From the NCBI GenBank assembly GCA_965205545.1, contig OZ242170.1, positions 1,649,149-1,713,148 of the forward strand: a stretch of DNA of 64,000 nt, in the 5' to 3' direction. Below are positions 1 to 61,079 of this stretch, one piece after another; the stretch's first letter is position 1, and each line of letters opens with the position of its first letter. Below the pieces are notes generated by a model. That model saw only the letters and a program-made list of their open reading frames with translations, ran no database searches and had not been told where the DNA came from. Both the position numbers and the translations under genes were made by a program. The stretch comes from Candidatus Azotimanducaceae bacterium (GTDB taxonomy: Bacteria > Pseudomonadota > Gammaproteobacteria > Pseudomonadales > Azotimanducaceae).

Positions 1-636
1 AGATGAGGTGTCTGCGAGCCACTCGCCTTGGTAGCGGGGGAACATGTAGTCGCCCATGTCGTTCATTATCTGAACACCCTTTACGACAGGATAGATTTGC
101 AAGACTTCTTGGACCTTCTGCACAACCGTTGGCCAAGCAGCTCCCCACATGCTGCCGGATGTATCAATCACGAAAATCACATACTCGCTGTCCACAGTGA
201 TTCCACCAATGACATCGTTCTTTCGAACATAATCAATTCCCAAAAGACGTATCATCTCATCGGTTAGGGATTGCTTTGCTCGAGCGAGGTCTGCCTGTTG
301 CTCTTCCTGCTCCTCCGTGATTCTTCTGACTGTATCGTATTTGCTTGTTAGTTCGACAAGCTCCTCTTGCAATTCCAATTGACGCAGCAGCTCTTGCTCA
401 ATGTTGTCCTCAGTCTCGATTTTTGTACGTTCAAGGATTGCCGTTTCTCCGAGAATCTTCTCTATCTCCTCTTGACGCTTGGCTATCTGCGCCGCGAGAT
501 CTTCGAGTGAGATCTCCAATATGGTTGGCAGACTGATCTTGGTGATCATCAGCAACATGATGATTGCACCGAACCCGCAGCATATGACATCCAAGAAGGC
601 AAGGCTAAGCTCATTCCCTTCACGTCGTCGCCTCAT
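1..636 (-). CDS. ExbD/TolR-like membrane anchor + coiled coil + VWA domain protein (paralog of the next gene; C-terminus lies beyond the window edge)
   Basis: Absent from the ORF track because it runs off the window. I translated the minus strand from the ATG at 636-634: MRRRREGNELSLAFLDVICCGFGAIIMLLMITK, then a long E/Q/L-rich heptad-like stretch, then VIFVIDTSGSMWG (DxSxS MIDAS). The ATG overlaps the TGA of the upstream gene (ATGA at 633-636). Confidence 0.75.
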   Translation of the reverse strand, partial: MRRRREGNELSLAFLDVICCGFGAIIMLLMITKISLPTILEISLEDLAAQIAKRQEEIEKILGETAILERTKIETEDNIEQELLRQLELQEELVELTSKYDTVRRITEEQEEQQADLARAKQSLTDEMIRLLGIDYVRKNDVIGGITVDSEYVIFVIDTSGSMWGAAWPTVVQKVQEVLQIYPVVKGVQIMNDMGDYMFPRYQGEWLADTSS

Positions 637-1721
637 GGCCAGTCCTCCGACGGGGCCATGAACGTTCCGGAGGTAATGTGTGCCAAATTCCAATACGACC
701 CCGCCGCGAACGGATCGCCCTCAAGAGGCAACATGATGACGTTGATGGGGATTCCAGCGGGTAGCGACTCGACCGAACGCCTGAACATGGCTAAGCGCTG
801 GCGTCCGTCCACCACCGTGCGCCGGGAAGTTCGGTTTTCCAGGGTGGGGAGACCGTCTGTTATCAGGAAAACGTTGTCAGGAACTGGCTTCATCTCGGAT
901 ATGGTTACGAACAACTGTTGCAAGTTGGTTCCTTCTCTTGGAGGCTTGTTGCGCAATGAGTCAATTGCTTCGTGGACCGCATCCGTATCCGTCGCGGGAT
1001 GCCACTCTCCCAGCCCGACCACAAATTCAGTTTCGTTGTTGTACCTGACTATTTGAAAACTGCTGTCAACCGGAATGTTGGCGACCAACCACTCTGTAGC
1101 GTCTACTGCCTGTTTCCACTTCGGTGCATCCAACTGCCGGGGGACTGGCATGTGCATTCGTCTTCTTATGTTCACAAGCTCTGCATCCAGCATGCTTGCG
1201 GAACTGTCGAGCGCAACCAAAATGTACCGCCCGCCCATGTAAAGCCCCGTCAAGTATTGTCTATCGCCCTCTCCTTCGATGGCAATGACGTCCGGCCCAC
1301 GTTCGGTTTCCTCACGCTCCTTGAGGAGTTCTACTTCCTCCTCTTGAGTTTCTATCTCCGAACGCTCTCTCTCAATCGTCTCGCTTTGGTCGAGTGCGAT
1401 CTTCTCGATTTCTTCGAGCGCTTCTTCTTTTTCCTCCACTTCTTCCTGCAACGAATCAACTCGTTCGCGTGCTTCCGCAATGCGGAGCGCTAATTGTGCG
1501 ACTATTTCACGCAATTCAGCGAGGTCTTGCTCGCCTTCCCGCGCTCGATAATCAAGCAGTCGCGACTCCGCTAATTGATCGCGGTTGATCGTGTCAATTT
1601 CTTCCTCGGTTTGATGATTGATAATCAGAAATATCATCACCACGGCGCCAAATCCGCCCGCCATGACATCCAGAAACGACAACGTAAATACATTGAGTGG
1701 ACGTTTCCGCGATCTAGCCAT
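633..1721 (-). CDS. ExbD/TolR-like membrane anchor + coiled coil + VWA domain protein
   Basis: 362 aa. The N-terminus RKRPLNVFTLSFLDVMAGGFGAVVMIFLII matches the ExbD/TolR pattern (basic residues, then (I/L)N(I/V)..L..DV(M/L) with an Asp in the helix). About 110 aa of E-rich coiled coil follow. The VWA domain has YILVALDSSASM (DxSxS) and FLITDGLPT. Confidence 0.8.
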   Translation of the reverse strand: MARSRKRPLNVFTLSFLDVMAGGFGAVVMIFLIINHQTEEEIDTINRDQLAESRLLDYRAREGEQDLAELREIVAQLALRIAEARERVDSLQEEVEEKEEALEEIEKIALDQSETIERERSEIETQEEEVELLKEREETERGPDVIAIEGEGDRQYLTGLYMGGRYILVALDSSASMLDAELVNIRRRMHMPVPRQLDAPKWKQAVDATEWLVANIPVDSSFQIVRYNNETEFVVGLGEWHPATDTDAVHEAIDSLRNKPPREGTNLQQLFVTISEMKPVPDNVFLITDGLPTLENRTSRRTVVDGRQRLAMFRRSVESLPAGIPINVIMLPLEGDPFAAGSYWNLAHITSGTFMAPSEDWP

Positions 1722-2985
1722 CTTCGCTAACCGCTATAAGCTGATACGCAATGGAGCCTGCCACAATGGAGTCGCCAACTTTGGTTGCAGCCTCTCCGTG
1801 GATACGTTCACCGTTAAGCAACACGGTTGCGTGACTATCGGGAACGACAACGAACCCGCGCGCGTTCTTCTTGATGGTAAAGTCGGTCGTGCCATCGCGT
1901 TGGTTAGTAGCGGCAAATTCACTACCAATTGCATGGGCAATGGATTGCCTCAATACATGAGTGGCATCGGGAAGCGCATGCGCTTCGTGATGAATTTGAG
2001 AGCGTGCCTTGTTTACATGAGGAATTTCAACGTGAAGAGATCTGGCATTCGAGTCACCCTTGGAAGCCCCAATTCTCGAGGCTGCCATTGCTATGTCACT
2101 GACCGTGCAAGGAAAGCACTTGCTGCCCTGGTCGTTGAACGCCTCCACGACTCCTGGCAATGCGGCGGAGTGTTCGGAGAGCAACACTGGGCAACCGTGA
2201 TCTATGAGAGAGGACACTTCTGCCACTCGCGCATTTGCTGCCGCCACTAGCTCGGAGCGCGAAATCTCAGCTTGCCTTGAGTTTCTCTGGTGCTCCACGT
2301 GCACAACATGGATATCTTCGTCCAGCGCCACGAATTCCAACATCTGATCGAAGACCTGCTGTTCGGTTCCAGCAAATTTTCTAGGATCGAAACGAGCAGT
2401 ATCAAGCAGCTTGTCCGCAGCTATCTTTATCCAGGAATTTATCAACGGTAGCAACCCGAACCGCGGAGCAATGCTCGTACCTCCCTTAGATACAACTTTG
2501 CCGACCTGAAGTTGAGTCACAACACTTCGGTGAAGCCCTATTTCTACAAATGCACACTTCTCGCCAACGTCGATGCTGGCTCCTGCTGCGACTCCTCGGT
2601 CGACAAAATCCAAAACATTGAGCTCCGCCTGCACCGCAATGCCGTAAAACAACGCCAACTGACCATTCGACATGTCGCTGGGAACCGCTACCCACAATTG
2701 GTCCTCGCTTGAAAGCCCGCTTTGCTCCTTCATGGCAAGGAGTTGTTGGAAGACTAGGTCGGCCTGGGTCTCAACGGCAAAGCCTGGTGGGTGGACCGCG
2801 CTCTGATCCATTCGCTGCCAGTACTGACTCTGCTCGCGATCCGGATAAAGCTTGATTTGTGCTAGAGCTTCGCTACCAAGGACCAAGGACTTTGGTTCGA
2901 CAAGCGCTATCCCAGGTTCGTCGTATCGGACCTCGCCGTCTTTGCTCAGCCTAATACTGGCATCTGCAACATCAAGAATCCACAT
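1714..2985 (-). CDS. Cytoplasmic actin/Hsp70-fold-like protein with C-terminal FHA-like domain
   Basis: The ORF extends to 3036, but the ATG at 2985-2983 lies 1 nt after the TAG of the MotA-like gene (2989-2987), and MWILDVADAS is a sensible N-terminus. ILDVADAS, VAVPSDMSNGQLALFYGIAVQAELNVLDFVDRGVAA and FVEIGLHRS resemble degenerate Hsp70/actin phosphate-1, connect and phosphate-2 segments. The C-terminus FVVVPDSHATVLLNGERI...VGDSIVAGSIAYQL is FHA-like. No TM segment or signal peptide is present. Confidence 0.6.
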   Translation of the reverse strand: MWILDVADASIRLSKDGEVRYDEPGIALVEPKSLVLGSEALAQIKLYPDREQSQYWQRMDQSAVHPPGFAVETQADLVFQQLLAMKEQSGLSSEDQLWVAVPSDMSNGQLALFYGIAVQAELNVLDFVDRGVAAGASIDVGEKCAFVEIGLHRSVVTQLQVGKVVSKGGTSIAPRFGLLPLINSWIKIAADKLLDTARFDPRKFAGTEQQVFDQMLEFVALDEDIHVVHVEHQRNSRQAEISRSELVAAANARVAEVSSLIDHGCPVLLSEHSAALPGVVEAFNDQGSKCFPCTVSDIAMAASRIGASKGDSNARSLHVEIPHVNKARSQIHHEAHALPDATHVLRQSIAHAIGSEFAATNQRDGTTDFTIKKNARGFVVVPDSHATVLLNGERIHGEAATKVGDSIVAGSIAYQLIAVSEDG

Positions 2986-2986
2986 G

Positions 2987-3784
2987 CTAACGAACCTGCA
3001 AGTGCCTAAGCAAGTTTTCGTCGCACCACGCTTCAACGGCGATTACCGTCTCCTCTTGATAGCGCTGCAGCTGATATACGAAAAACATAATCACAATGCT
3101 GATGACCAAAGCCACAAAGGTCGAATTGAACGCCACGCCAAGACTTTCCGTTACCCCTGCAATGTCGCCTTGAACTGCCTCGTATGCGTGCCCTAGCGCT
3201 TCTCCAATACCGCGAACTGTACCGATGAAGCCAATGGACGGTATGGCCCAGGCAATATAGCGAATCATTGCCAATTCGCTATCCAACCTGTCTGCTTCAG
3301 CCTCGCAAACGGAGCGAACGACTTCAGAAACGTTTTGCACTGCCTGGGTGGACTCAAACCTTTGAAGTGCAGTCAAAACGGTTCGCGATATAAGCAAATC
3401 TTGCGCCTTGGCAGGAAGAGATTGAATGGGTCGCATGTAGCGACGAGCATCCTCCGGCAATACACTGACCCCATCGCCCACCTGCAGGACGTTGCGATCA
3501 AGCAATCGGCGTTCAGCCATGGCCGACATCGCTTTAGTCCCCATGATTGCAAAGGCCCAAAACATCAAAATGAAGCAAGTTTCCTGCTCGTAGTCTCGAA
3601 GCGTTACGAATAGCGACCGCTCAGGCGTGAAGGTCTCGTCGTTTTGAAGACGTTCGGCGCGATCGGCAAGAATTTCGTTAGCGGTTGGGCGAATTACGCT
3701 CGCGTACACCAAATGCACAACTAGTATGGAGATTAGCAACGCAATTAGTTGGGTTAGTAGCGACGATGTAAAGCGTCCTTTCAT
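2987..3784 (-). CDS. MotA/TolQ/ExbB family proton-channel protein
   Basis: 265 aa with an N-terminal TM and the family signature region IAWAIPSIGFIGTVRGIGEALG...GVTESLGVAFNSTFVALVISIVIMFF (compare the IAP.LGLLGTV.G ... AL.TT..GL consensus). Confidence 0.85.
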   Translation of the reverse strand: MKGRFTSSLLTQLIALLISILVVHLVYASVIRPTANEILADRAERLQNDETFTPERSLFVTLRDYEQETCFILMFWAFAIMGTKAMSAMAERRLLDRNVLQVGDGVSVLPEDARRYMRPIQSLPAKAQDLLISRTVLTALQRFESTQAVQNVSEVVRSVCEAEADRLDSELAMIRYIAWAIPSIGFIGTVRGIGEALGHAYEAVQGDIAGVTESLGVAFNSTFVALVISIVIMFFVYQLQRYQEETVIAVEAWCDENLLRHLQVR

Positions 3785-3793
3785 AGTTAATTC

Positions 3794-4189
3794 CTATATA
3801 TCCACTGGAAAAGGCACGGCAATATCTTCAGATATCTCCTCCGTTGGTATAAAGATTTCTGCAATACCGTCCTCGTCGGATCCTTCTTCTTCAGATTGAG
3901 CTGATTCTTCATTTGACGAATCCATTACAGATTGGTTCTCTGCGTCAGTTTGCGCCGGATTAAGCCCCTCAGGTGCTGGCTTAGCGTTAGCATCGTTGTC
4001 CGTTTCCTTATTACCTGAAGAAGAGTCTGCCTCCTCCGAAGACACAGTCTCCTCGGAATTCGACGTCTCCGCTTGATCGGTCTGAGAGAGAACCACCGCT
4101 GAATTCAGCAAGAGGAATACAAGTGGCAGATTCACCAGCGCAAACCTAGAGAGACTGAAACTCTTGCGCTTTCTGCTTCTATTCTGCAT
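3794..4189 (-). CDS. Small secreted acidic low-complexity protein
   Basis: The start is taken at the internal ATG 4189, just after the stop of the upstream gene (4179-4181). It has a signal-like segment FALVNLPLVFLLLNSAVVLSQ, then a D/E/S-rich region, and ends in EIFIPTEEISEDIAVPFPVDI. Confidence 0.6.
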   Translation of the reverse strand: MQNRSRKRKSFSLSRFALVNLPLVFLLLNSAVVLSQTDQAETSNSEETVSSEEADSSSGNKETDNDANAKPAPEGLNPAQTDAENQSVMDSSNEESAQSEEEGSDEDGIAEIFIPTEEISEDIAVPFPVDI

Positions 4190-6230
4190 AGCGAGCAATG
4201 CGGAAACCAACGTCTTGCCTTCCATCTATCCCATAGTCTCGAAACGACAATCTCACATCCGTAATCGTTCCATTCAAATAACTTGAACCACGAATCACGT
4301 GATATTCGCCTTCGTTCGGTCCCAATGCGTTCACAACGGTGTTCGCCTCGGGCACGGTGTAGAAATCATGCATCCATTCGGCGACGTTTCCGCCTATGTC
4401 AAACAAACCCTTAGAGTTTGGTGCAAATGTCCCAACGGGCGCTGTTACTGTGTAGTTGTCGTTGTAATCGAACAGAATTCTGCTGACTACATGCTGTGCG
4501 GCCCGATCAGCATAGTTTCCGTGTCGTGTTGGAGGCGGGAGCTTTTCACCCCAAGGAAAGTGCAACAACTCTGGCTCTCCCTCAACGTGACGCGCCGCCC
4601 AGGACCATTCTGATTCCGATGGTAGGCGGTAGCCGAGCGCACTGGGGTTGAATCCGACAACTTTTGCCCCACGCAATTCGTAAAAGGGCTCTAGGCCTTC
4701 CTTTTCTGAAAGATAATTGCAATACAAGGCTGCTTCCGTCCAAGACACGTTCACAACAGGCTGTTCGTCCTCATTGAGGGATGACCCCTGATAGGTCCCA
4801 GAATCATGTCCCGGTGCAAATTGGCGGAAATGCCCATTGGTAACTTCTTGAATTCCCATGTAGAAAAGTCTGTTCTGGTTCACCGTGCGAAAGACTTCAT
4901 TCGCGCGACGGCCTGGTTGTCTTCGCGAAGCCCCCATGCGAATGGAAGTGGGCTGGAGCAACACAATTTCCTGACCATCCGGGGATGTGCGAACTTGCCG
5001 CAATGCTTCCAATCGGGCTTCCTCCAGCGTCAATAGGCGAACACGCAAATTTTGGGCTAGTCCCGGTTGAATGGTTATGTGGTTGCTGTATCCCGCGTAG
5101 CCTTCCTTGCGTAGTTCCACCGAGTGGTCCACCGCATGTAGAGCAAACGACTCGTTGCTGACGCCAAGTAGATTGCCATCCACCCACACTTCGACACCGT
5201 CTGGTTCCGTCGTTACTATCAACGTCCCCATGACTTTTTCTAGAACGAGATCTAAAGTCTCGTGTGCACCGGGATCGACACTTATGTCGCGATCCAATTG
5301 CTCATACCCAACTAGCAATACGCTCAAGGAGTGCGCCTTCTGCGGCTCGACCGTTGCTGTTAGAGGGGTAACGCCTTTGAACTCTCCGTCGATGCTTACA
5401 CTAGCTCCGGGTGGCTCTGACGTCATTGTCAGTACGCCCCCCTGCAGCTCGAGCTCAACAGGTTCTAGCTGCACGACCTGCCCAGCTTCTACATAGATGA
5501 TGTCCGTCCAATCTGCATAGCCGAATTTCCTAATCGAAATCGTATGCTCTCCGGCAAGAACCTCGACCGGGCCAGGGGTAACAAATCCTGAATCGGCACC
5601 GTCAATGTGTACAGTCGCCCCTTCTGGATCCGTCGGCATAGTGACCATTGCCCAATTTGGGCTCAATTCGACATTGATCGATTGCTCTTGGCTCATGCCC
5701 TGGATCGTTTCCTCAACGGACTTGGATATGTAGCGTGGCGCAGTAAACTCAAACACCGTATTACCTGCTGCAATATCCAATTGCAGTGGAGTCTTGCCAT
5801 TTGGCACACCATTGACAGAAACTGCAGCTCCAACGGGAACTGAAGTGATCATCACGTCGCCTGGCAAGCGGACGAGATTCAACTCGAACACTTGGTCGCC
5901 TTGGGGAGCGACCTCAATAGGTAGTGACAACTCGTGGTAACCGTCAGCTCGAGCAATTACCGTGTATTCGCCCTGACGCATGAGAAAAGTCTCCGGCGTA
6001 CGAATCACAATGCCACCAGAGACGTCTACTTGCGTATCTGCAACGTTCGGCTCAAACCTAACCGCCTTTGCGGTGAACAGAAACCACAGCACGAACCCAG
6101 CAACCACGACAACGAACAGCGTTAACACTTGCAGCCATGGAACTAGCCTGATGCGACGGGGCGGCCGTGGTGGAGTTGGCTTGAATTCCTCGGGACGAAG
6201 AACTGGAGGCGCGTCGGTGTCCATGGGCAA
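4179..6230 (-). CDS. Single-pass membrane protein with about 5 PEGA-like repeats and a C-terminal FGE-sulfatase (SUMF1/GldK-like) domain
   Basis: 683 aa. It has a Pro-rich N-terminus and the TM segment LVPWLQVLTLFVVVVAGFVLWFLFTA. Repeats of the type TSVPVGAAVSVNGVPNGKTPL, TDPEGATVHIDGADSGFVTPG, SEPPGASVSIDGEFKGVTPL and TEPDGVEVWVDGNLLGVS are present. The C-terminus carries the FGE-family hallmarks GLFDIGGNVAEWMHDFY and HVIRGSSY...GFRIAR. Confidence 0.8.
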   Translation of the reverse strand: MPMDTDAPPVLRPEEFKPTPPRPPRRIRLVPWLQVLTLFVVVVAGFVLWFLFTAKAVRFEPNVADTQVDVSGGIVIRTPETFLMRQGEYTVIARADGYHELSLPIEVAPQGDQVFELNLVRLPGDVMITSVPVGAAVSVNGVPNGKTPLQLDIAAGNTVFEFTAPRYISKSVEETIQGMSQEQSINVELSPNWAMVTMPTDPEGATVHIDGADSGFVTPGPVEVLAGEHTISIRKFGYADWTDIIYVEAGQVVQLEPVELELQGGVLTMTSEPPGASVSIDGEFKGVTPLTATVEPQKAHSLSVLLVGYEQLDRDISVDPGAHETLDLVLEKVMGTLIVTTEPDGVEVWVDGNLLGVSNESFALHAVDHSVELRKEGYAGYSNHITIQPGLAQNLRVRLLTLEEARLEALRQVRTSPDGQEIVLLQPTSIRMGASRRQPGRRANEVFRTVNQNRLFYMGIQEVTNGHFRQFAPGHDSGTYQGSSLNEDEQPVVNVSWTEAALYCNYLSEKEGLEPFYELRGAKVVGFNPSALGYRLPSESEWSWAARHVEGEPELLHFPWGEKLPPPTRHGNYADRAAQHVVSRILFDYNDNYTVTAPVGTFAPNSKGLFDIGGNVAEWMHDFYTVPEANTVVNALGPNEGEYHVIRGSSYLNGTITDVRLSFRDYGIDGRQDVGFRIARYAE

Positions 6231-6236
6231 TGCCGA

Positions 6237-7799
6237 CTAAATCTGCTCTTCGCAGACTATGCGGACGGGTTGCATGCCTCGTCCCACGTTGATTGATTTT
6301 CGGACATCCACCCAACCATCCCGGCTACCAACAAGCTGATAGCGACCGGGGCGCAATTGGATTTCGCGTCTTTCAAACAGTCCGAGCTTGCCGCGGGTGC
6401 TCAATGTCACCTCAGTTGCATTGTCCGACACCAAGACAACTGTGAGGTGTTGAGAAGCAAAGTCAATCAAGTTAGCAAACTCGGTCAAAGATCGATCAAA
6501 ATCTGTACTGTGACCACGAAGTTTCTCGGCTCGTTCCAATAACTGAACAGATTTGCTCAGTTCGTCGTCAGCCGACAGTACACCAGGGTCACCGAGCACG
6601 ACATGCATTTGCTCATTGACCGTGAGGATTTCGAACACACGCTCCTTTCCCTTGATCGCGAAGTCCAATTTGGCGTCAATCTCTAGAACCTCGTCGTAGG
6701 TGGCAAGTGCGGCCTCGAGCTCAAGCAGATCCTCCTCTTCTTGGGCACGTGTTCGCAGTTCCTCAATTCGAAGGGCGACTCTTGCCAAAGCGCTCTGCTG
6801 CAATCCGGTTGTCGCAGCCACGTTACCTGGCTGTCTTTGCAACACTTCGTTGAACATCCGATCCGCCTCGTCGAAGTCATCCTGATTGAGCGCTTGGTGT
6901 CCCTGCGAAAGTAGCTCATTTAGCTCCTCTTCAGCCTTTGACTGATTGATTCGCGAACGTCGGTCGTCGACACCGGGCGTTAGAGAATCCAGATCCTCAA
7001 CCTGGGACAGGTACGCAAGCGCATCGTCCCACTGACCTCTCAAGACCGCACGGTCACTTTCGCGTAACAACTCATTGATCTTGGGTAGTCGGGCGACGCG
7101 CTGCAATCCAATTTGTGCTGATTGAACGAGTGGCTTGATGGCAGAAGCGTTTTGAAACGCGACTTGAGCTGCCTCTGTGTCTCGATCGTCCAACGCTGCA
7201 ACTCCCGCTTCCATCCATTCGTCGAACTCGGCGTTTACCGTCTCCAACAGTTGGCCTAATTCTTCTAAGGCGGAATTGAACTTGCTCAGTGCTGCATCGT
7301 ACTCTCCCTGCCCAAACAGTATGTCGCCTTCATTCGCCTTGGCCAAAATCGCGTTATAAAGATCCCTATGCGATTCCGAACCATATTGGTTTCTTTCAAA
7401 CGTATCCTGTAACGCGCTAAATTCCTCGAGATCTGACTCGGCCTGCGCTCGAGCGCGGTCCAACTGGGACTCCAAAAACGGCGCAATGCTTTGGTCGTTA
7501 GCGTTTGTCTCGTTCCGGTCGCTCGGTCGCTCGCTTGTACCGTCCCTTTCGTTGCTACCCGTCCACACCCGCGCTATGTCTTGCTGTTGAATCCACAAGA
7601 ACATGGCGGCAGCACAGACTACGACAAAGATTCCAGCGATAAACTGCTTCTGCCGTGAAGTTACACGAAACTGTGAACGGCGCCGAGTCGGCTCGTTTGA
7701 AGCAAGTTGGGGAACTACCGGTTGTATTTGAACCGGCTTCGCTGCACTATCCGTTGTCTTGGAAGAATTCTTCAGTGACGTTCTCCCCAGACTCATCAA
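6237..7799 (-). CDS. Membrane-anchored TPR/coiled-coil scaffold protein with a C-terminal beta-rich domain
   Basis: 520 aa with the TM segment FIAGIFVVVCAAAMFLWIQ and long helical-repeat regions (GEYDAALSKFNSALEEL, GQWDDALAYLSQV, DDFDEADRMFNEVLQRQPGN). The C-terminus LRPGRYQLVGSRDGWVDVRKSINV is PEGA-like. Its 5' end overlaps the 3' end of the upstream lipoprotein gene by about 50 nt, and there is no alternative in-frame start downstream of that overlap. Confidence 0.7.
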   Translation of the reverse strand: MMSLGRTSLKNSSKTTDSAAKPVQIQPVVPQLASNEPTRRRSQFRVTSRQKQFIAGIFVVVCAAAMFLWIQQQDIARVWTGSNERDGTSERPSDRNETNANDQSIAPFLESQLDRARAQAESDLEEFSALQDTFERNQYGSESHRDLYNAILAKANEGDILFGQGEYDAALSKFNSALEELGQLLETVNAEFDEWMEAGVAALDDRDTEAAQVAFQNASAIKPLVQSAQIGLQRVARLPKINELLRESDRAVLRGQWDDALAYLSQVEDLDSLTPGVDDRRSRINQSKAEEELNELLSQGHQALNQDDFDEADRMFNEVLQRQPGNVAATTGLQQSALARVALRIEELRTRAQEEEDLLELEAALATYDEVLEIDAKLDFAIKGKERVFEILTVNEQMHVVLGDPGVLSADDELSKSVQLLERAEKLRGHSTDFDRSLTEFANLIDFASQHLTVVLVSDNATEVTLSTRGKLGLFERREIQLRPGRYQLVGSRDGWVDVRKSINVGRGMQPVRIVCEEQI

Positions 7800-9015
7800 T
7801 GCCTGCTTCCGACTCTAGATCTCCTTCAACGTCCTCGTCTGGAAGACCTAGGTATTCAAAGTAAAGTTGCTTGAGTGTTTCGCGTGCTTTAAGAAACTGT
7901 TCGGAGGCAGTTCCTTCTAGTCTAATCGTGGAATTCTCCAACTCGATCGTGTGTGGATCGATCTCCTTGGCCGCGATAACTCCCAACTCTTGAAGCGTCG
8001 AGGCATGGATTTTCACGTTTGCGCGGTTTTGAATTCCGCCGATTATCTCTGTAGCTCCGCCGATTACCGACGCGTAACCGGCATATTCAGTAATCGTGCT
8101 GCTACTTCGTTGCGCAACGGCTCCACCTAGGACCATCATCGTCCCTGCTATTAATCGACTCCGAGACTTGTTGCGTTCCTCTCGAAGATCAATTGCCTCG
8201 GTGTACGTGCCTTCTCGCCAGTTTTGGTACGGAATTCGCATGTCCCACGCAAAGCGGGAAAAGTATTCTGCAAGTGTGTCTATTACAAGAAACTCGCGTT
8301 CTCGGACTTCACGAACTCGCCTCATGTTTGGATCATTCGACGCAGGCAAACGCACCACCTCGTATTCCTCATCCTTAGTCTCGGCGACATAGTCAGCGAA
8401 GGCATCGGGATTTATGTCGCGGGCGTAGCGCATTAGCGTAGTCAGTCGAATGTCTTCAATTTCCTCGATCGAAAGCTCTTCGACATATTCGAGCATCTCA
8501 TCTGCAATCAATCGGTAGGTTGTTTGAAACGGTTCAACATTTGAGGCAATTTCGAGAGCGTAGTGATACTTGCTAGCCAACGTTTCGTAGACTCGCTCGA
8601 ACCAGATCTCGCCTCGAGAGTCCTGCACACGCACTGCCAAAACTTGTCGCTCACCGTCAGAATGCAGAATGCCGCCGGTTACTAACACATCCACAGCATA
8701 GGTGGCTTGAGGCAGCACCCTAACGGCTCCCCAATTCCCCGTGGATTGCAACAAGTCCGTCGCGTAGCTGGAAATGTAGTTTGCTTCAGCTCTTCGTATC
8801 TCGGGAGTGATATTCCGAGTAACTAGATCGTCGTAGGCTTCGGGAATATTGGAGTCGAATACTACGACTCCCACGTCAAGCAAAAGGTCATCTGGCAGCG
8901 CGCGGTCCGAGGTTCTGGGTGCTTGGGTGTCAACAACACGCAGAGTCGTGGACGAGCACCCAAAAAGAAACAAGCAAAGTGAGAGCCCGATGTAGAGAAC
9001 ACTCGCTTTCTTCAT
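7747..9015 (-). CDS. Lipoprotein of unknown function
   Basis: The start at ATG 9015 overlaps the TGA of the upstream gene (ATGA at 9012-9015). It has the lipoprotein signal MKKASVLYIGLSLCLFLFGC (lipobox LFGC), a Gly-rich hydrophobic segment IAGTMMVLGGAVA...VIGGATEIIGG, and an acidic C-terminus. Confidence 0.7.
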   Translation of the reverse strand: MKKASVLYIGLSLCLFLFGCSSTTLRVVDTQAPRTSDRALPDDLLLDVGVVVFDSNIPEAYDDLVTRNITPEIRRAEANYISSYATDLLQSTGNWGAVRVLPQATYAVDVLVTGGILHSDGERQVLAVRVQDSRGEIWFERVYETLASKYHYALEIASNVEPFQTTYRLIADEMLEYVEELSIEEIEDIRLTTLMRYARDINPDAFADYVAETKDEEYEVVRLPASNDPNMRRVREVREREFLVIDTLAEYFSRFAWDMRIPYQNWREGTYTEAIDLREERNKSRSRLIAGTMMVLGGAVAQRSSSTITEYAGYASVIGGATEIIGGIQNRANVKIHASTLQELGVIAAKEIDPHTIELENSTIRLEGTASEQFLKARETLKQLYFEYLGLPDEDVEGDLESEAGIDESGENVTEEFFQDNG

Positions 9016-10097
9016 TTGAGACCCTCGATGTATGTCTCGTAGTCTTCCCAAAGTTTCTCTTTCAGCTCTGGATCCTCTTCTGCCATGGCGGCCTCGCGCA
9101 ATTGTCGGGCGTACACTTCCTTGTCTCGCGCATCAGGCGTGTCCGCTACTGTATGCATAGTCGGCGGAAGATTGGGTGTGCCATCTCCTTTGTTTGTTGC
9201 TTCGCTGACGGCTGAGTTCTCTTCGCCAACGCCCGAGTCGGAGGATTCGCCTTGAGACTCCGATGTTGTCTCCTCGGCCTGCATATCTGCGGGACCGCCT
9301 GCGGCAGCAGCGCGGTCATTGGCGCGAGCCAAATCATCGCTACGTTCCTCCATGATTTCGCCGTCCAAGACACCTAGTACGCGTCTCAATTCCTCATCCT
9401 CAGGATCGAGTCCGCGATTATCACCCAACTCCTGATCAAACTCTCCTGGCAGTTCTCCAATGCCGCTCTGTTCGTCTTGCGTCGCGAGCCCACCCGGTTC
9501 AGGCAACTGATTGCTAATCTCCCAACCGCCGCTGGCTTCATCGTCGCTAGTTCCGGGGATTGGTGAACTTTCAGGCAATCCGCCCTCGCCAGCCTCATCG
9601 CCTTCACTAGCCTCATCGCCTTCGGGTTCGCCAGTACCCATAGGTCCGCCGGTTTCCAACACACCTGATTCCGTTCGATCCGTTCCGTCTTGAGGAGTAC
9701 CTTCGCCCTCACCCTCTTCTTGATCTTGATCAGCTACACCGGTTGACGGCATTCCGGGCAAATCTGCATCCGTTGGCCCGTCAGTGCTCGTCGGCAGCGA
9801 TGGAAGAGATGGCATGCCAGTCGACGAATCGGTACCGGGCAAGGTAGTGCTTGGTGGAATTGGCAACGGGGGACTGCTTGTAGGTGATGGAATCGGCGAA
9901 GGGATGGATGGTAGACCCGATCCCTGTCCCTGTCCGGTTGATGTGCCACCTGATGACGGTGCACCTGATGTCGATGGCGGCATCGAGCTTTGTGACGGAC
10001 TTGGCAATTCGATTGTTGGAAAGTCTCGAGGCGTACTGGATAGACAGCCACTTAGCAGTGCGATTGCGACGCCAACTGCTAGCAATCGACTTGCCAT
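9012..10097 (-). CDS. Lipoprotein with P/S/T-rich and D/E/G-rich disordered regions
   Basis: The ORF extends to 10187, but MASRLLAVGVAIALLSGC from ATG 10097 is a classical lipoprotein signal with lipobox LSGC. It is followed by PSIPSPIPSPTSSPPLPIPPS and EGDEASEGDEAGEGG low-complexity tracts, and a short helical C-terminus EDPELKEKLWEDYETYIEGLK. Confidence 0.65.
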   Translation of the reverse strand: MASRLLAVGVAIALLSGCLSSTPRDFPTIELPSPSQSSMPPSTSGAPSSGGTSTGQGQGSGLPSIPSPIPSPTSSPPLPIPPSTTLPGTDSSTGMPSLPSLPTSTDGPTDADLPGMPSTGVADQDQEEGEGEGTPQDGTDRTESGVLETGGPMGTGEPEGDEASEGDEAGEGGLPESSPIPGTSDDEASGGWEISNQLPEPGGLATQDEQSGIGELPGEFDQELGDNRGLDPEDEELRRVLGVLDGEIMEERSDDLARANDRAAAAGGPADMQAEETTSESQGESSDSGVGEENSAVSEATNKGDGTPNLPPTMHTVADTPDARDKEVYARQLREAAMAEEDPELKEKLWEDYETYIEGLK

Positions 10098-10287
10098 CAA
10101 AAACGGCTTGCTGCTGCAATGCTCTTTCGCCGCACTGCCTAGCACACTCAACCCTGATTTATTTGTGTTGAGAGAAACGATGTCCATTTCAGCCTGTTCC
10201 CGCCATCAAGGCTTGTTTTCTCCTCTACTACAGAGACACTGTCTCGGCAACAAGGTTCACTTTAGTGCAATGCATAGTGTCAATAAC

Positions 10288-11589
10288 CTACTCTTCGGCA
10301 CTTGAGTCCGAAAAGAAGATGTATTCATGCGTCAATATTACTCCTTCCTGCGGCTTCCTCTCTCCACTTCGAACGACTGGGCGGTACCTAGCCTCTCGCA
10401 TAGACTCCAAAAATAGCTCAACAAATCGATCGTCAGGCACAACAGATTCGACGGTTACTTCCTCGACCAATCCCTCTGCGTCGACGTTGAACATCAATTC
10501 AATTCTGCCCTCTAAAGGCTCCACTAGACTCGCTTGAGGATGCGCCTGCGGACTTCTTGACAGAGGGTAGTACAGCGCCACCGGTTGGCTGAATTCCTTG
10601 CTTAAAAACTCTGCACTAAGGTTGCTGGAGAACATCTCCCATATGTCCCTATACACAATGGTGGCTAGTTCAATCTTGTCGAACAGCAAGTACCAGTCCG
10701 CCAAGTCCAATTTGGCGTAAGCTAGGGATTCAGACGAGCTTTCTGCTCGCTCCTGCTCGATTTCCACCAGCTCTTTGAGAGCTTCCTCTCCAGGTGCAAA
10801 CCGGTTAACTGTGGCTTTGTAAGTTGGAACGCCCTCATCAGTCGATGCCGACTGATCAATGAACTCCTCGCTCACAACGAGCTCTCCCGGAGTCGTGAAT
10901 CGCTCATGGCGATAGCTCATAGCCAGTCCTTTCAATGCTCGAATGTTAAAGGGATCTGTCCGCTCAAGATTGGTCTCTGTAATCTTCAGTGCATCGTCAA
11001 ACATTCCTCGTGCTGCAAATACGTTGCGCACTTCCAAATACCACTCCGCCAATTCGAGCAAACCTGGCAGAAGATCAACCGAGTCCTCGCCATATGTCCG
11101 CACGTTTACGTTGTATGCATACTCATGGCGGTCCGTTGCGCGTCCAATTTGGCCGAGCTCGTGGTAGGTGTCAGCTTCCCGGTATACGACGTCAAGCTGC
11201 TCGACGGAATGCAGGCCATGTGCTAGTCGCGAAACATGGCGTGCACGATCATAGGTGTCAAGGGCCTCCACATACTCGCCGTTCTTGCGCAATCCGTCGC
11301 CCAGCAAAAGAAGAGGCTCGACAAGTATCGGATCGAAACGCGACCCTTCTTCTTCCAATTGATCAATGAAGTTACTTGCAAGTTCTATGGCTTCGCCGAT
11401 TTCATTGGAAGCCAAGCGAGTTCGAATGGCCTCCAAGGGGTCGCTGGGTGTGCTGGGCATATCCTGCTGACCAACATCGTTGCCACCATTCTCATCACCC
11501 ATGCATGCAATTCCAACGAGCAGCACAGCCAAGGCAACAAAAGAGCTCGCCGTCCGTTGGACAGTCAAGCCAATGTGTTCAATCTTCAT
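10288..11589 (-). CDS. TPR-repeat protein with C-terminal TonB_C-like domain (first gene of the operon)
   Basis: The ORF extends to 11673 and the start is uncertain; I chose M29 (MKIEHIGLTVQRTASSFVALAVLLVGIAC, a signal or anchor). It has TPR-like helices (NGEYVEALDTYDRARHV, GQIGRATDRHEYAYNV). The C-terminal roughly 80 aa, GRIELMFNVDAEGLVEEVTVESVVPDDRFVELFLESMREARYRP, resembles the TonB C-terminal fold. Confidence 0.65.
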   Translation of the reverse strand: MKIEHIGLTVQRTASSFVALAVLLVGIACMGDENGGNDVGQQDMPSTPSDPLEAIRTRLASNEIGEAIELASNFIDQLEEEGSRFDPILVEPLLLLGDGLRKNGEYVEALDTYDRARHVSRLAHGLHSVEQLDVVYREADTYHELGQIGRATDRHEYAYNVNVRTYGEDSVDLLPGLLELAEWYLEVRNVFAARGMFDDALKITETNLERTDPFNIRALKGLAMSYRHERFTTPGELVVSEEFIDQSASTDEGVPTYKATVNRFAPGEEALKELVEIEQERAESSSESLAYAKLDLADWYLLFDKIELATIVYRDIWEMFSSNLSAEFLSKEFSQPVALYYPLSRSPQAHPQASLVEPLEGRIELMFNVDAEGLVEEVTVESVVPDDRFVELFLESMREARYRPVVRSGERKPQEGVILTHEYIFFSDSSAEE

Positions 11590-11752
11590 TAGTTTGAAAT
11601 TCACAACCCGTTTGTTAGCTTTCAACCGCATCCCATTCATGAGATCCAAACATCGATATAAACTAACTCTCATTCGTAGCTAAGTGGTTCTCTCAGTTGA
11701 CTCGTTCGATAGTGTGTTTGACCCGCAAATGCTTGGAAATGTCTTCTAGTCC

Positions 11753-32168: not shown

Positions 32169-34283
32169 TTGACGAAGTACGTGCGCAGTCCCATCCAGTC
32201 TCTTGTTCAAGGAATCCTTGGACTTTCTTGGGTACTGGCTATGTGCTCGCTTACTCTAGAGGTGTGCGCGGATGACCAAGCGGATCCTCACTCGGACGCG
32301 AATGAGGAGGAGATTGAAGAGGTCGTTGTACGGGCCGACCCCGCTAGCTTAACCGCCCGTTCAAGTCAAGGAAGTGTGACTTCCGTCCGCGCTGCAGCTA
32401 TCTCGCTAATACGAGCGACTCATCCCAATGAAATACTGTCTCGTGTTCCTGGTGTCTGGGTGGTGCGTGGTTCGGGCCAGGAGCATCTAACTGGCATTAG
32501 GTCCGGAGTGCTAGCTGGAGCTGGCGCTTGCGGAGCATTCCTATTGCTCGAGGACAACATTCCAGTTCGGCCAGTAGGGTTCTGCAACGTTAATGGCTTG
32601 TTCGAGTTGAACACTGAACAAGCGGATGCGATCGAAGTACTGCGTGGTCCTGCAAGCTCAATTTTTGGAGGCAATGCGCTACATGGAGTCATCAATGTGC
32701 GCAGCTTCGTTGACACCAACACACCTAGTAGGTTGAGCGTTGATGCGGGTCCATACGACTTCCTGCAATTCCGCGTCGACTCTCGCAATAGAGATTCACG
32801 CTACAAAATGCACTCCACCAAGACCAATGGCTACCGCGAGTCCACTGGATACGCACAACACAAGGCAAATGTTCAGACAGCTGTTTCTTGGGGCAACTGG
32901 AAGTCCGCGCACACACTCTCAGCAACTTTGCTTGACCAGGAGACTGGAGGCTACGTAAACGGCTTCAAATCTTACGAAAACTCTCAGCTAAGAAGATCGA
33001 ATCCAAACCCCGAAGCATTTCGCGATGCAAAATCGGTGCGGGCGGCCAGTCACTGGATGGGCAAATACGCGGAAGGAAGTCTGTATATAAGCCCCTATGC
33101 TCGACGATCCACCATGAAATTTCTGCAGCACTTTCTGCCGGGTCAGCCTACCGAAAAGAACTCCCAGTCCAGTGTAGGTGTTGTTTCACAGTGGACGAAA
33201 ACCCATTCCCGACATTCCTTCACTTTGGGAACTCAAATAGAGTGGATGAATGCCCGTCTTCTTGAACAACAGATAAACGCCACAATTGGCTCACCTTTCC
33301 TGGTAGCTACCCGACCACAGGGAATTCACTACAACTTTGATGTCGCTTCAGCCACGTTCGCTGTGTTTGGGAATTCCATCGTTTCGCTCGGAAACGATGA
33401 ACTCAACTGCAGCCTACGATTAGAGCAGGTCAGGTACAACTACGACAATCTGCACCTCGACGGCAATACTCGGGACGATGGAACGCCTTGTGGATTTGGC
33501 GGATGTCTGTATACGCGGCCGGCAGACCGCAGCGACAGCTTCTATAACGGTGCAGTCCGGCTGGGCTACCGTCGATTTCTAGACGACCAAACCCGTATAT
33601 GGGGACTGGCAGGGTGGGGATACCGTCCACCACAGACAACCGAACTCTATCGATTGCAGAGCGGACAATCTGTGGCAGACTTGACGAGCGAAAGGCTTCG
33701 ATCGATGGAAGCAGGAGTGGAGGCCGTTCGCGACAACTTTGAAATCAGCATCGCTGCATATCGGGAGTCGAACAAAGACCTGATCTTTAGAGACGCCGAG
33801 GGTATGAATGTAAGCGACGGTGAAATCCTCGCTCAAGGTGTCGAGATTGAGTTCAACTGGAAAGCCACCACAATGCATAGTGTTGCACTGTCGGGCTCTA
33901 TAGCAAATCACGAATACAGATTCACCCGTACTGTTGCTAGAGGCGAACAGATCAATAAGGGAGCGGAAGTGGACTCGGCGCCTTCACTTCAAACCAGTGT
34001 CCGATGGATATTCCAGCCAATTCCCACGACTATGCTTGAGGTGGAATTTGTCCAAATTGGCCCGCACTATCTCAACGCGGCGAACACAGCAAAATACGGT
34101 GGACACACTCTAGCGCACATCCGAGCCAACTGGATTTTCGATGCGAATTGGCGCGGTTCGCTAAGGATTACGAATGCCTTGGACGCCAAGTACGCCGATC
34201 GCGCCGACTATGCGTTTGGCAACTACCGCTACTTTCCGGGTACTCCGCGGCAATTGTTTGCGGGAATCGAGTACGAGTGGTAG
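32169..34283 (+). CDS. TonB-dependent outer-membrane receptor
   Basis: 704 aa with a signal peptide and a TonB-box-like EEIEEVVVRA. Plug blocks are ILSRVPGVWV and IEVLRGPASSIFGGNALHGVINV. The C-terminus ends in FAGIEYEW with a terminal aromatic residue. The start is a TTG and is uncertain. Confidence 0.9.
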   Translation: MTKYVRSPIQSLVQGILGLSWVLAMCSLTLEVCADDQADPHSDANEEEIEEVVVRADPASLTARSSQGSVTSVRAAAISLIRATHPNEILSRVPGVWVVRGSGQEHLTGIRSGVLAGAGACGAFLLLEDNIPVRPVGFCNVNGLFELNTEQADAIEVLRGPASSIFGGNALHGVINVRSFVDTNTPSRLSVDAGPYDFLQFRVDSRNRDSRYKMHSTKTNGYRESTGYAQHKANVQTAVSWGNWKSAHTLSATLLDQETGGYVNGFKSYENSQLRRSNPNPEAFRDAKSVRAASHWMGKYAEGSLYISPYARRSTMKFLQHFLPGQPTEKNSQSSVGVVSQWTKTHSRHSFTLGTQIEWMNARLLEQQINATIGSPFLVATRPQGIHYNFDVASATFAVFGNSIVSLGNDELNCSLRLEQVRYNYDNLHLDGNTRDDGTPCGFGGCLYTRPADRSDSFYNGAVRLGYRRFLDDQTRIWGLAGWGYRPPQTTELYRLQSGQSVADLTSERLRSMEAGVEAVRDNFEISIAAYRESNKDLIFRDAEGMNVSDGEILAQGVEIEFNWKATTMHSVALSGSIANHEYRFTRTVARGEQINKGAEVDSAPSLQTSVRWIFQPIPTTMLEVEFVQIGPHYLNAANTAKYGGHTLAHIRANWIFDANWRGSLRITNALDAKYADRADYAFGNYRYFPGTPRQLFAGIEYEW

Positions 34284-45746: not shown

Positions 45747-46105
45747 TGGTGGAGGCGGCGGGAATCGAACCCGCGTCCGACAGTACTCCATCCTCGGCTC
45801 TACATGCTTATTCCTGCCTTTGATTTAACCCATCGGTGACCCGGCAAGACTGGGTTCCATTGGGCGAGTCCTCAGTTTTAGCCATCGGACGATCGGACCT
45901 TCTTCCGTGGCGATCCCGTAAGTATGATCCCGTCCACCCTATACGGGCATTCAGATGGACAGGACTAGCGTGCTATCTAAGCCGCTAGAGCGTAGTTGTC
46001 GTCGTTGGCAACTAATTGAAATTGAAACAATTGATTTACGAGAGCTGTTTCTCTCTCGGCATGCACCTGAGACTTTGCATCCGCCGTCGAATCCATTTCG
46101 CCCCC
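45747..46105 (-). ncRNA. ssrA: tmRNA (SsrA)
   Basis: The minus strand starts GGGGGCGAAATGGATTCGACGG and ends GGTTCGATTCCCGCCGCCTCCACCA, forming a tRNA-Ala-like acceptor/T-arm. The internal tag ORF GCC AAC GAC GAC AAC TAC GCT CTA GCG GCT TAG encodes ANDDNYALAA* (46009-45977). Confidence 0.95.
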
Positions 46106-60992: not shown

Positions 60993-61079
60993 GCCGAGAT
61001 GGTGAAATTGGTAGACACGCCAGCTTCAGGTGCTGGTGGGGGCAACCCCGTGGAGGTTCGAGTCCTCTTCTCGGCACCA
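60993..61079 (+). tRNA. tRNA-Leu (anticodon CAG)
   Basis: GCCGAGATGGTGAAATTGGTAGACACGCCAGCTTCAGGTGCTGG...GGAGGTTCGAGTCCTCTTCTCGGCACCA folds as a class II tRNA with a long variable arm. The acceptor stem GCCGAGA/TCTCGGC pairs, the anticodon loop is TTCAGGT, and CCA is encoded. Confidence 0.93.

Follow-up and report, generated by a model that had tools for sequence, protein, structure and literature searches.

The subject of this analysis is an operon at the left end of a 64,000-nucleotide (nt) stretch of the genome of Candidatus Azotimanducaceae bacterium (assembly GCA_965205545.1, contig OZ242170.1, positions 1,649,149 to 1,713,148 of the forward strand; this whole stretch is hereafter called the window). 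Open reading frame (ORF) listing and translation distinguished ten co-directional minus-strand genes, named g1 to g10 from the left edge, which occupy positions 1-11673. They encode a predicted channel subunit of the TolQ/ExbB/MotA type (g4), two paralogous membrane-anchored proteins with heads of the von Willebrand factor type A (VWA) kind (g1 and g2), a cytoplasmic protein with an Hsp70-like fold (g3) and a set of accessory proteins (g5-g10). Together these products may form an ion-driven motor that acts within the cell envelope.

The gene junctions were read base by base, which confirmed the ten-gene unit described in an earlier reading of the letters alone (the sequence-only reading). ATGA stop/start overlaps are present at 633-636 (g2/g1) and 9012-9015 (g9/g8), one nucleotide (position 2986) separates the stop codon of g4 from the ATG of g3, and g3/g2 and g8/g7 overlap by 8 nt and about 50 nt, respectively; the remaining intergenic gaps are 6-12 nt. 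The statement that all genes overlap or lie within 10 nt of each other holds for the junctions it named, but not for g10-g9, where the spacer is 100 nt (10188-10287), and an alternative Met of g9 at 10097, directly ahead of the signal peptide, would widen it further. Gene g10 probably starts at 11589 instead of 11673, giving a product of 433 amino acids (aa) in place of the 461-aa ORF, since its orthologues are 424-444 aa long. The likely ATG starts of g6 and g7 are at 6224 and 7796, and g5 has an alternative start at 4189. The GC content is even across the gene block (0.49-0.57), with a negative GC skew throughout. Scans for consensus promoters and terminators were uninformative, the counts being at or below shuffle expectation.

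Related loci were collected by a pattern-seeded scan of one genome per species. It gave 108 loci, of which 80 were fetched and form the sample for the locus counts given below; the ten window proteins were compared with them by tblastn. As anticipated by the sequence-only reading, the operon extends beyond the left edge of the window: in relatives a complete g1 is followed by two lipoprotein genes and then by a convergent methyltransferase gene. Since relatives have these two genes after the full g1, the window, judged by this comparison, is missing the final two and a half genes of a unit of about 12. Full-length g1 has 330-355 aa in close relatives, including locus L004, depending on the start codon. 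The two lipoprotein genes 3' of g1 encode products of 216 and 237 aa without a Pfam family (L004 13366-14016 and 13989-14702), and two small lipoprotein genes also follow g1 in L001-L013 and in most gammaproteobacterial loci. In Steroidobacteraceae the second of them is located at the upstream end of the cluster instead.

The cluster is carried by at least 108 species-level genomes. Among Gammaproteobacteria, these are metagenome-assembled genomes (MAGs) of Pseudomonadales and the oligotrophic marine Gammaproteobacteria (OMG) group, many of them from sponges, as well as Steroidobacteraceae, Arenicella and Salinisphaeraceae, including cultured Spectribacter; beyond this class, the carriers are Acidobacteriota (Vicinamibacteria) and Planctomycetota. 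Sponge-associated and marine Pseudomonadales MAGs are the closest relatives. The gene order g9-g8-g7-g6-(g5)-g4-g3-g2-g1 was found almost everywhere: the seven core genes (g8, g7, g6, g4, g3, g2 and g1) are all present in 63 of the 80 loci, in 60 of them in the same order, and most of the incomplete loci end at contig boundaries. Since the order recurs in 60/80 species-representative loci from three phyla, the arrangement is not a product of chance. A lack of synteny in relatives had been named by the sequence-only reading as grounds for abandoning its proposal, and the conserved core order answers that test in its favour. In the window and nearly all loci, g4 lies within 1.3 kb of g2 and g1, and 60 of the 63 complete-core loci place g3 between g4 and g2. 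In three groundwater and lake gammaproteobacterial MAGs (L024, L030 and L046) the channel gene is found 3' of g1, so that the link with the VWA pair is kept and the adjacency to g3 is lost.

The families concerned are large. Searched against 1.84 billion clusters at 50% identity, a g3 profile recovered 1,996 representatives, of which 1,040 had E <= 1e-30, and at 90% identity the g2 and g8 families comprise 2,707 and 1,596 clusters, respectively, whose members are annotated solely as "VWA domain-containing" or "hypothetical". De novo clustering of the ORFs of the 80 loci revealed no further widely conserved family, and no conserved outer-membrane barrel, ATPase, kinase or ExbD/TolR gene. A gene for an ExbD/TolR/MotB-like protein, the conventional plug of such motors, is absent from the window cluster and from every one of the 80 related loci. 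An M48 metallopeptidase gene directly follows the operon in 14 loci, from Arenicella and others (e.g., L071 14765-16330 and L028 11234-12679), and may encode a lineage-specific accessory protease.

Gene g4 (2987-3784, minus strand) encodes a 265-aa protein with a long cytoplasmic loop, a divergent TolQ/ExbB/MotA-type channel subunit by its match to the Pfam model MotA_ExbB (PF01618; E 4.3e-16, 59.3 bits against a cut-off of 22.9). The MotA/ExbB channel of the sequence-only reading was thereby upheld, and by this score g4 is a bona fide MotA_ExbB domain protein; the channel assignment depends on the Pfam model. Its scores are below the equivalog cut-offs for tolQ (TIGR02796, 32 bits versus 221) and exbB2 (18.8 bits versus 135). 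Among 15 homologues from several lineages the invariant residues include P182, G185, G188, T189, R191, T212, N220 and T222, and the motif P..G..GTV.G aligns with MotA. The pore-lining Pro and Thr that characterize motors with five channel subunits and two plug helices (5:2 motors) have their counterparts in P182, G188, T189 and T222, all invariant in the same 15 homologues. The Arg at position 191, directly after the pore-helix G-T-V motif (GTVRGIG), is an invariant specific to this family; at the corresponding position, TolQ and MotA have a hydrophobic residue, a comparison based in part on alignment.

The two proteins encoded beside this channel gene share one plan. Gene g1 (1-636, minus strand, partial) gives the N-terminal 212 aa of the first paralogue, which begins MRRRREGNELSLAFLDVICCGFGA and runs past the left edge of the window, and g2 (633-1721, minus strand) gives the complete second paralogue of 362 aa. 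Both start with a short Arg-rich cytoplasmic tail and a single predicted N-terminal transmembrane (TM) helix, continue with about 90 charged, heptad-rich residues and end in a VWA-type head. The helix carries the motif (S/A)-F-L-D-x-x-x-C-G-F-G-A in about 155 homologues from three phyla. Its Asp is invariant in 78/78 and 78/79 aligned homologues of the two paralogues and is located near the cytoplasmic end of the helix, behind the Arg-rich tail (Asp18 in g2); this is also the position of D25 of ExbD and D23 of TolR. A His is absent from both helices. As far as motif and topology go, g1 and g2 have the features of the partner subunit of a 5:2 motor, namely one N-terminal TM helix with a conserved protonatable Asp.

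The head of g2 matches the VWA_2 model just below the cut-off (E 2e-5, 25.6 bits versus 27), and g1 gave no match to a VWA model of Pfam, whether the 212-aa fragment in the window or the full-length orthologue of L004 was used. The DxSxS element of the metal ion-dependent adhesion site (MIDAS) is invariant in both paralogues, with the form VIDTSGS in g1 (about 78 homologues). In g2 the full set (DxSxS...T...D) is present: D172, S174, S176 and D289 are essentially invariant, and position 265 is T or S. The attribution of VWA domains to both proteins therefore holds as regards an intact MIDAS and the near-threshold match of g2, but it receives no support from Pfam for g1, whose assignment as a VWA protein is suggested by its paralogy with g2 and the DxSxS motif. 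The heads are predicted to be periplasmic by topology, and the "adhesive" role that the sequence-only reading had given them, in the sense of adhesion at the cell surface, is unsupported.

The heptad-rich stalk of g2 spans approximately residues 47-136. The helix Asp and the MIDAS Asp are separated by a nearly constant number of residues, with a median of 154 in g2 (interquartile range 149-156) and 142 (142-143) in g1, which suggests a stalk of fixed length across phyla; a heptad stretch of about 90 residues would measure about 13 nm if it formed one continuous coiled coil. Protein g1 is about 27% identical to a g2 orthologue, while orthologues from different phyla share 34-45%. Since, in addition, both genes are present wherever the contig allows, these values point to g1 and g2 being an old, obligate pair.

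Gene g3 (1714-2985, minus strand) encodes a 423-aa protein for which neither a Pfam match nor a TM helix was found, and which is predicted to be cytoplasmic. It was modelled with AlphaFold2 from 12 homologues with a predicted local distance difference test score (pLDDT) of 88. For residues 1 to about 320, the top Foldseek matches in the PDB are the nucleotide-binding domains of DnaK/Hsp70 (E 3e-15, template modelling (TM) score about 0.6), i.e., an actin-type fold, followed by a C-terminal FHA-like beta-sandwich of about 70 residues. A full-length homologue (P0018) matches the forkhead-associated (FHA) model PF00498 at 5e-11, and all the best PDB matches of the g3 family profile over residues 365-415 are FHA domains (E 0.02-0.8). 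In alignment A1, the GR and SxxH residues of P0018 are replaced in the window protein by S, T/D and T; the FHA domain of g3 accordingly appears degenerate, without the canonical phosphothreonine-binding Arg, Ser and His. The substrate-binding domain of Hsp70 is absent from the model, which has the FHA-like domain of about 70 aa in its place, and the phosphate loops DLGTT and DLGGGT could not be recognised by eye in alignment A1. According to the model, then, g3 has an Hsp70-like fold and is not an Hsp70. An actin/Hsp70-like protein with an FHA domain had been predicted from the letters, and this description stands for both folds, but not for the canonical phosphothreonine-binding residues.

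Two accessory proteins are predicted to be anchored in the inner membrane. Gene g6 (4179-6230, minus strand) encodes a periplasmic protein with one TM helix (residues 26-59) and no lipobox, composed of four PEGA repeats (9.6e-52, four matched stretches) and a domain of the formylglycine-generating enzyme (FGE)-sulfatase family (3.3e-37). In an alignment with human FGE, GGSYMC corresponds to GSSYLN of g6 and the position five residues on is D, so that the catalytic, copper-binding Cys pair (human Cys336 and Cys341) is replaced by N and D. The FGE domain named in the sequence-only reading is thus confirmed as a fold but is without its catalytic Cys pair, and by this alignment it is a structural or binding module in which the fold was kept and the catalytic residues were lost, as in PorK and PvdO. 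The protein matches PorK in the PDB at 2e-9 and the GldK model TIGR03525 at 1e-23 (84 bits versus a cut-off of 350). Gene g7 (6237-7799, minus strand) encodes a tetratricopeptide repeat (TPR) protein with a TM helix at residues 50-73 and a cytoplasmic tail of about 50 aa, conserved in 74 of the 80 loci. Its weak TPR matches to PrsT of the PEP-CTERM system and to PilW in NCBIfam reflect generic repeats and lie far below the family cut-offs.

Genes g8 and g9 encode lipoproteins, with the lipoboxes LFGC and LSGC, respectively, and the Pfam matches and lipoboxes together bear out the PEGA-FGE, TPR and lipoprotein products listed by the sequence-only reading. The 422-aa product of g8 (7747-9015, minus strand; AlphaFold2 model with pLDDT 81) has an N-terminal alpha/beta domain, weakly similar in Foldseek to the N-domain of TolB and to LptE (E 2e-3), and a helical hairpin of about 130 residues with a Gly-rich tip, which weakly recalls the alpha-pore-forming toxins AhlB/SmhB (E 0.04-0.1). 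It has no Pfam match and no sequence homologue with a solved structure. In g9 (9012-10187, minus strand) a long, disordered, acidic, Pro/Ser-rich linker leads to a C-terminal motif of about 35 aa (...VARQLREAA..E.DPELKEKLWE.Y..Y), the only conserved part of the protein, with 55-67% identity across Gammaproteobacteria, Acidobacteriota and Planctomycetota. Gene g5 (3794-4225, minus strand) encodes a small, acidic (20% D+E), presumably secreted protein with a signal-like hydrophobic segment, whose variable linker ends in ...EEISED..VPFPVDI-COOH, conserved in 32 of 74 loci. In both g5 and g9, which the sequence-only reading had characterised only as acidic and disordered, a rapidly diverging disordered linker contrasts with a C-terminal peptide that is sharply conserved. 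Such a tether with an acidic C-terminal peptide makes them candidate ligands of the MIDAS or of the TPR proteins.

Gene g10 (10288-11673, minus strand) encodes a periplasmic TPR protein (TPR_12, 2.8e-10) with a C-terminal TonB_C-like domain (5.6e-4, 20.7 bits, below the cut-off of 24.6); its homologues in L022 and L027 score above this cut-off (28-35 bits). The majority of orthologues begin with a cleavable signal peptide and lack a TM anchor; members of the family were detected in 42 loci, in some cases on the opposite strand. The TonB_C protein of the sequence-only reading is therefore retained as a weak domain match, but it is no TonB, having a cleavable signal peptide and neither a TM anchor nor a Pro-rich region.

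The operon lies in ordinary chromosomal surroundings of housekeeping character, with genes for a GGACT protein, a DAO oxidoreductase and gamma-glutamyltranspeptidase, lepA, rseB, nadB, the transfer-messenger RNA (tmRNA) gene and dnaB. Searches of plasmid and phage collections gave no homologues of the operon; together with the chromosomal context, this argues against a mobile or defence role, and a mobile element was rejected as an explanation. Elsewhere in the window, the tmRNA gene (199 bits; 45747-46105, minus strand) and one tRNA gene (60993-61076, plus strand) are the only Rfam matches at the gathering threshold. A TonB-dependent receptor gene is located at 32169-34283 (plus strand) and is followed by three tandem plus-strand ORFs of about 1,150 aa (35060-38521, 38603-42112 and 42188-45652), possibly paralogues, for which no Pfam family was found except a sub-threshold Golvesin_C match on the first.

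The closest published description is a computational study (PMC12204202; Mol Biol Evol 2025) of trans-pore-helix vWA proteins that tightly co-occur with tolQ homologues in the absence of a tolR/exbD gene. These proteins mostly form heterologous pairs and have a TolR/ExbD-like trans-pore helix with a conserved Asp, which AlphaFold3 places inside the TolQ-like pentamer; the exemplar is from Idiomarina loihiensis, and the function is stated to be unknown (PMC12204202). The window operon resembles that mainly proteobacterial family in having a tolQ-like gene and two different genes for membrane-tethered vWA proteins, no tolR/exbD and the helix Asp, and here too the tolQ-like gene is linked to vWA genes whose two heterologous products possess the helix Asp and lack the SHLS motif. 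The match with the Idiomarina exemplar was made by description only. Unlike the published description, the family of the window operon also reaches Acidobacteriota and Planctomycetota. The text and supplements of PMC12204202 mention no Hsp70-like/FHA, PEGA/FGE or TPR proteins, no counterparts of g5, g8 or g9 and no lipoproteins, and the words "FGE", "PEGA" and "sulfatase" do not occur in them. Full-text literature searches for the gene combination found only this paper. The claim that the machine is "undescribed" was consequently too strong, as TolQ-like motors with paired trans-pore-helix vWA proteins had been proposed in 2025; the predicted architecture reached by the AlphaFold3 models is, independently, the one favoured here. 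With the motor core predicted computationally in that year, it is the accessory apparatus conserved across phyla and the residue-level hypotheses that look new.

The operon was also compared with the named envelope machines, to none of which it proved orthologous, as the sequence-only reading had held for Tol-Pal, Ton, Agl-Glt and type IX secretion (the T9SS), because their defining hidden Markov models or features fail. With Tol-Pal it shares a TolQ-type channel, a periplasmic TPR protein, a TonB_C/TolA-C-like domain, a weakly TolB-N-like domain, several lipoproteins, the absence of an outer-membrane barrel and a chromosomal housekeeping context. The ExbD family (TolR), TM-anchored TolA, the TolB beta-propeller and OmpA-like Pal, in contrast, are unmatched in the operon by Pfam, and here the plug subunits themselves bear periplasmic effector heads. 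Membership was rejected on the TIGR02796 score reported above for g4 and on the lack of any ExbD, TolB-propeller or OmpA family match. The ExbB-ExbD-TonB system likewise has a MotA_ExbB-family channel and a TonB_C-like domain, but it also has ExbD and a TonB with a TM anchor, the SHLS motif and a Pro-rich spacer, whereas g10 combines a signal peptide with TPRs. The gene set conserved in the 80 loci includes no TonB-dependent receptor, and membership of Ton was rejected on the exbB2 score, the missing ExbD and the lack of a TM anchor in g10.

The Agl-Glt gliding and focal-adhesion machinery is known from Myxococcus, with a "core complex" in Gammaproteobacteria (PMC3169522; PMC11761067). The accepted arrangement there is a single TolQ-like protein with two unlike plugs (AglR5-AglQ-AglS), and an FHA domain is predicted to bind the motor from its cytoplasmic side (PMC11761067). 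The likeness to the operon thus comprises one channel with two plugs, and FHA, TPR, TonB_C and VWA domains somewhere in the system. The domains are distributed differently, however: in Glt the outer-membrane lipoprotein CglB bears the VWA domain, and a single TM protein, GltG, combines FHA with TonB_C, whereas in the operon VWA is fused to the plug, FHA to the Hsp70-like protein and TonB_C to a soluble TPR protein, and the barrels GltA/B/H/K are missing. AglQ and AglS are ordinary ExbD/TolR proteins, matching PF02472 at 1e-15 to 1e-18 (PMC3169522). Membership of the Agl-Glt core was rejected on these ExbD domains, which g1 and g2 do not have, the Glt proteins being compared by domain distribution. 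GldLM/PorLM of the T9SS is a 5:2-type motor in which the dimeric subunit extends a long periplasmic stalk towards a non-catalytic FGE-fold protein, an arrangement similar to that proposed for the operon. Unlike its T9SS counterpart, however, g6 is TM-anchored and has PEGA repeats and is not a lipoprotein; GldM/PorM, PorN and SprA/Sov are absent, and the hosts are not Bacteroidota. Membership of the PorK/GldK family was rejected on the TIGR03525 score and the absence of PorN, PorM and Sov.

We consider it slightly more probable than its negation (about 0.55) that the operon encodes an ion-driven inner-membrane 5:2 motor of the MotA/ExbB/TolQ class which acts within the envelope and in which the g1-g2 pair replaces the ExbD/TolR/MotB plug. 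Domain content, topology, invariant residues, synteny, the obligate co-occurrence of the parts, the lack of a conventional plug gene and the separation from the named systems are results of the analysis; for the 5:2 assembly and its stoichiometry, the rotation or pulling, the binding partners and the physiological role, we infer the following scheme. Protein g4 would be the pentamer-forming subunit, and the g1-g2 heterodimer would supply the two central plug helices, whose Asp is the presumed proton-binding site. Driven by proton flow, the stalk would rotate or be pulled against the g4 pentamer, and the VWA heads would exert force on periplasmic partners held through the MIDAS. Likely partners are g8, g9 and the two small lipoproteins whose genes lie outside the window, the secreted g5, the periplasmic TPR/TonB_C protein g10 and, as scaffolds, the inner-membrane-anchored g6 (PEGA/FGE fold) and g7 (TPR). 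Protein g3 would bind the motor from the cytoplasmic side, as its regulator or anchor. Work inside the envelope, e.g., a Tol-Pal-like tethering or positioning of outer-membrane lipoproteins, is favoured over surface motility, given the periplasmic location of the VWA heads and the lack of genes for an outer-membrane barrel, a secreted adhesin or a translocon.

Several results weigh against this proposal. The g4 family profile found nothing in the PDB at E <= 0.01, and pairwise phmmer comparisons of g4 with solved TolQ and MotA gave weak values (E 0.09-0.6). The ExbD model PF02472 matched neither whole g1 and g2 nor any of 21 isolated helix segments at E up to 10; a profile of the g1/g2 helix retrieved no ExbD, TolR or MotB from the PDB, its sole match being a chance CGFG in NDUFB4; and hhalign of the helix with E. 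coli TolR returned a probability of 1.3%. The resemblance to ExbD/TolR consists in a short motif, topology and gene context, and the ExbD-like assignment of the sequence-only reading found no homology by any of these three routes. Its broader idea of a channel with VWA-headed plugs fared better: the N-terminal helix, the invariant Asp and the lack of an ExbD/TolR gene are consistent with it, though ExbD homology is not among its supports. The Tol-Pal-like view in turn is based partly on weak similarities, since the likeness of g8 to the TolB N-domain at E 2e-3 goes with a TM-score of only about 0.2, and the TonB_C match of the window's own g10 is below threshold.

The same parts might instead belong to a machine for surface motility or adhesin transport, akin in principle to Agl-Glt or to GldLM/PorKN of the T9SS, in which the motor moves a VWA-bound adhesin or track, the FGE-fold protein is a GldJ/GldK-like structural part and the actin-fold protein links motor and cytoskeleton. 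Among named bacterial families, PorK/GldK is indeed nearest to the FGE fold of g6 (TIGR03525 1e-23; PorK 2e-9), VWA (CglB) and FHA (GltG) domains exist in Agl-Glt, a single TolQ-like protein with two different plug subunits mirrors AglRQS, and an actin-fold protein is encoded. Nevertheless, we regard motility as unlikely: a conserved outer-membrane barrel, translocon (SprA/Sov, GltA/B/H/K) or secreted adhesin is absent from the 80 loci, the VWA heads are periplasmic by topology, scores for the GldK, GldJ, TolQ and ExbB equivalogs are far under their cut-offs, the ExbD domain is clear in AglQ and AglS and lacking in g1 and g2, and the carriers range from sponge symbionts to lineages of soil, groundwater and the sea. 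A static signalling or scaffold complex, with the TolQ-like and VWA proteins sensing the state of the envelope and reporting it through the FHA/Hsp70-like g3, would accord with the frequency of FHA and VWA domains in bacterial signalling and chaperone-like systems (PMC7159879) and with the phosphate-binding loops of g3, which look degenerate by eye (alignment A1). It seems quite unlikely in view of the membrane-embedded Asp, unchanging in each of the two helices, and of the likewise invariant pore-lining Thr and Pro of g4 across three phyla, an ion-translocation signature that a static scaffold would not need; moreover, the cluster has no conserved kinase, phosphatase, MoxR ATPase or transcription factor, and the phosphothreonine-binding residues of FHA are not conserved. 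The MoxR-vWA or "Bat"-type and conflict systems (PMC7159879) were rejected, as no MoxR ATPase, GTPase, STAND protein or effector was found.

The motor could also energise the passage of an extracellular polymer or surface layer, with PEGA/FGE and TPR proteins handling the polymer during its export, assembly or anchoring. Systems for envelope polymers often include TPR proteins and beta-sandwich repeats of the PEGA and carboxypeptidase-regulatory-like kinds, the weak TPR matches of g7 include PEP-CTERM PrsT and PilW, and an Agl-type motor has been reported to move the spore-coat polymer in Myxococcus (PMC3858216). Neither within the cluster nor next to it is there a conserved gene for a glycosyltransferase, polymerase, flippase, Wza-like protein or secretin, and the g7 matches are generic and far under the family cut-offs, so that this role is distinctly improbable. 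Least credible of all is anti-phage defence of the Zorya type, with a MotA/MotB-like motor as an envelope sensor. In Zorya, too, a MotA-like channel is joined by a partner with a long extension, and g4 gave a weak ZorA match in PADLOC (E 7e-4, 16.7 bits). Beyond this marginal hit, PADLOC returned nothing meaningful for the ten proteins, and on that ground a defence system was rejected; the peptidoglycan-binding domain of ZorB, ZorB, C, D and E themselves, and a nuclease or other effector are all missing, the synteny is strict across phyla in a housekeeping context, as opposed to variable islands, and the plasmid and phage collections contain no homologues. Set beside these alternatives, the ion-driven motor working inside the envelope is the reading that we prefer.

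Motors of the 5:2 type drive flagellar rotation, TonB-dependent uptake, outer-membrane stabilisation by Tol-Pal, gliding, type IX secretion and Zorya defence; to our knowledge, each ion-driven motor of this type so far characterised powers a major envelope process. The cluster would add to them an architecture in which a plug of the TolR/ExbD type, a rigid stalk and a ligand-binding VWA head make up one fused protein, which works with defined and widely conserved partners. In its boldest form, which we hold tentatively and think somewhat more apt to fail than to stand, the proposal is that of a previously unrecognised trans-envelope machine of about 12 proteins and a further 5:2 class. In it, the axle itself would be the force transducer, the VWA heads would capture the acidic C-terminal peptides of g9 and g5, the actin-fold/FHA protein would couple the motor to the cytoplasm, and diderms of at least three phyla would possess a second, Tol-Pal-independent means of performing mechanical work on the outer membrane. 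The list of parts makes hypotheses testable, i.e., on the peptides bound by the MIDAS, on the role of g3 at the motor and on outer-membrane maintenance, and cultured Spectribacter and Arenicella strains are among the carriers. If the operon does encode an envelope-integrity system parallel to Tol-Pal, it would bear on how force is transmitted across the periplasm.

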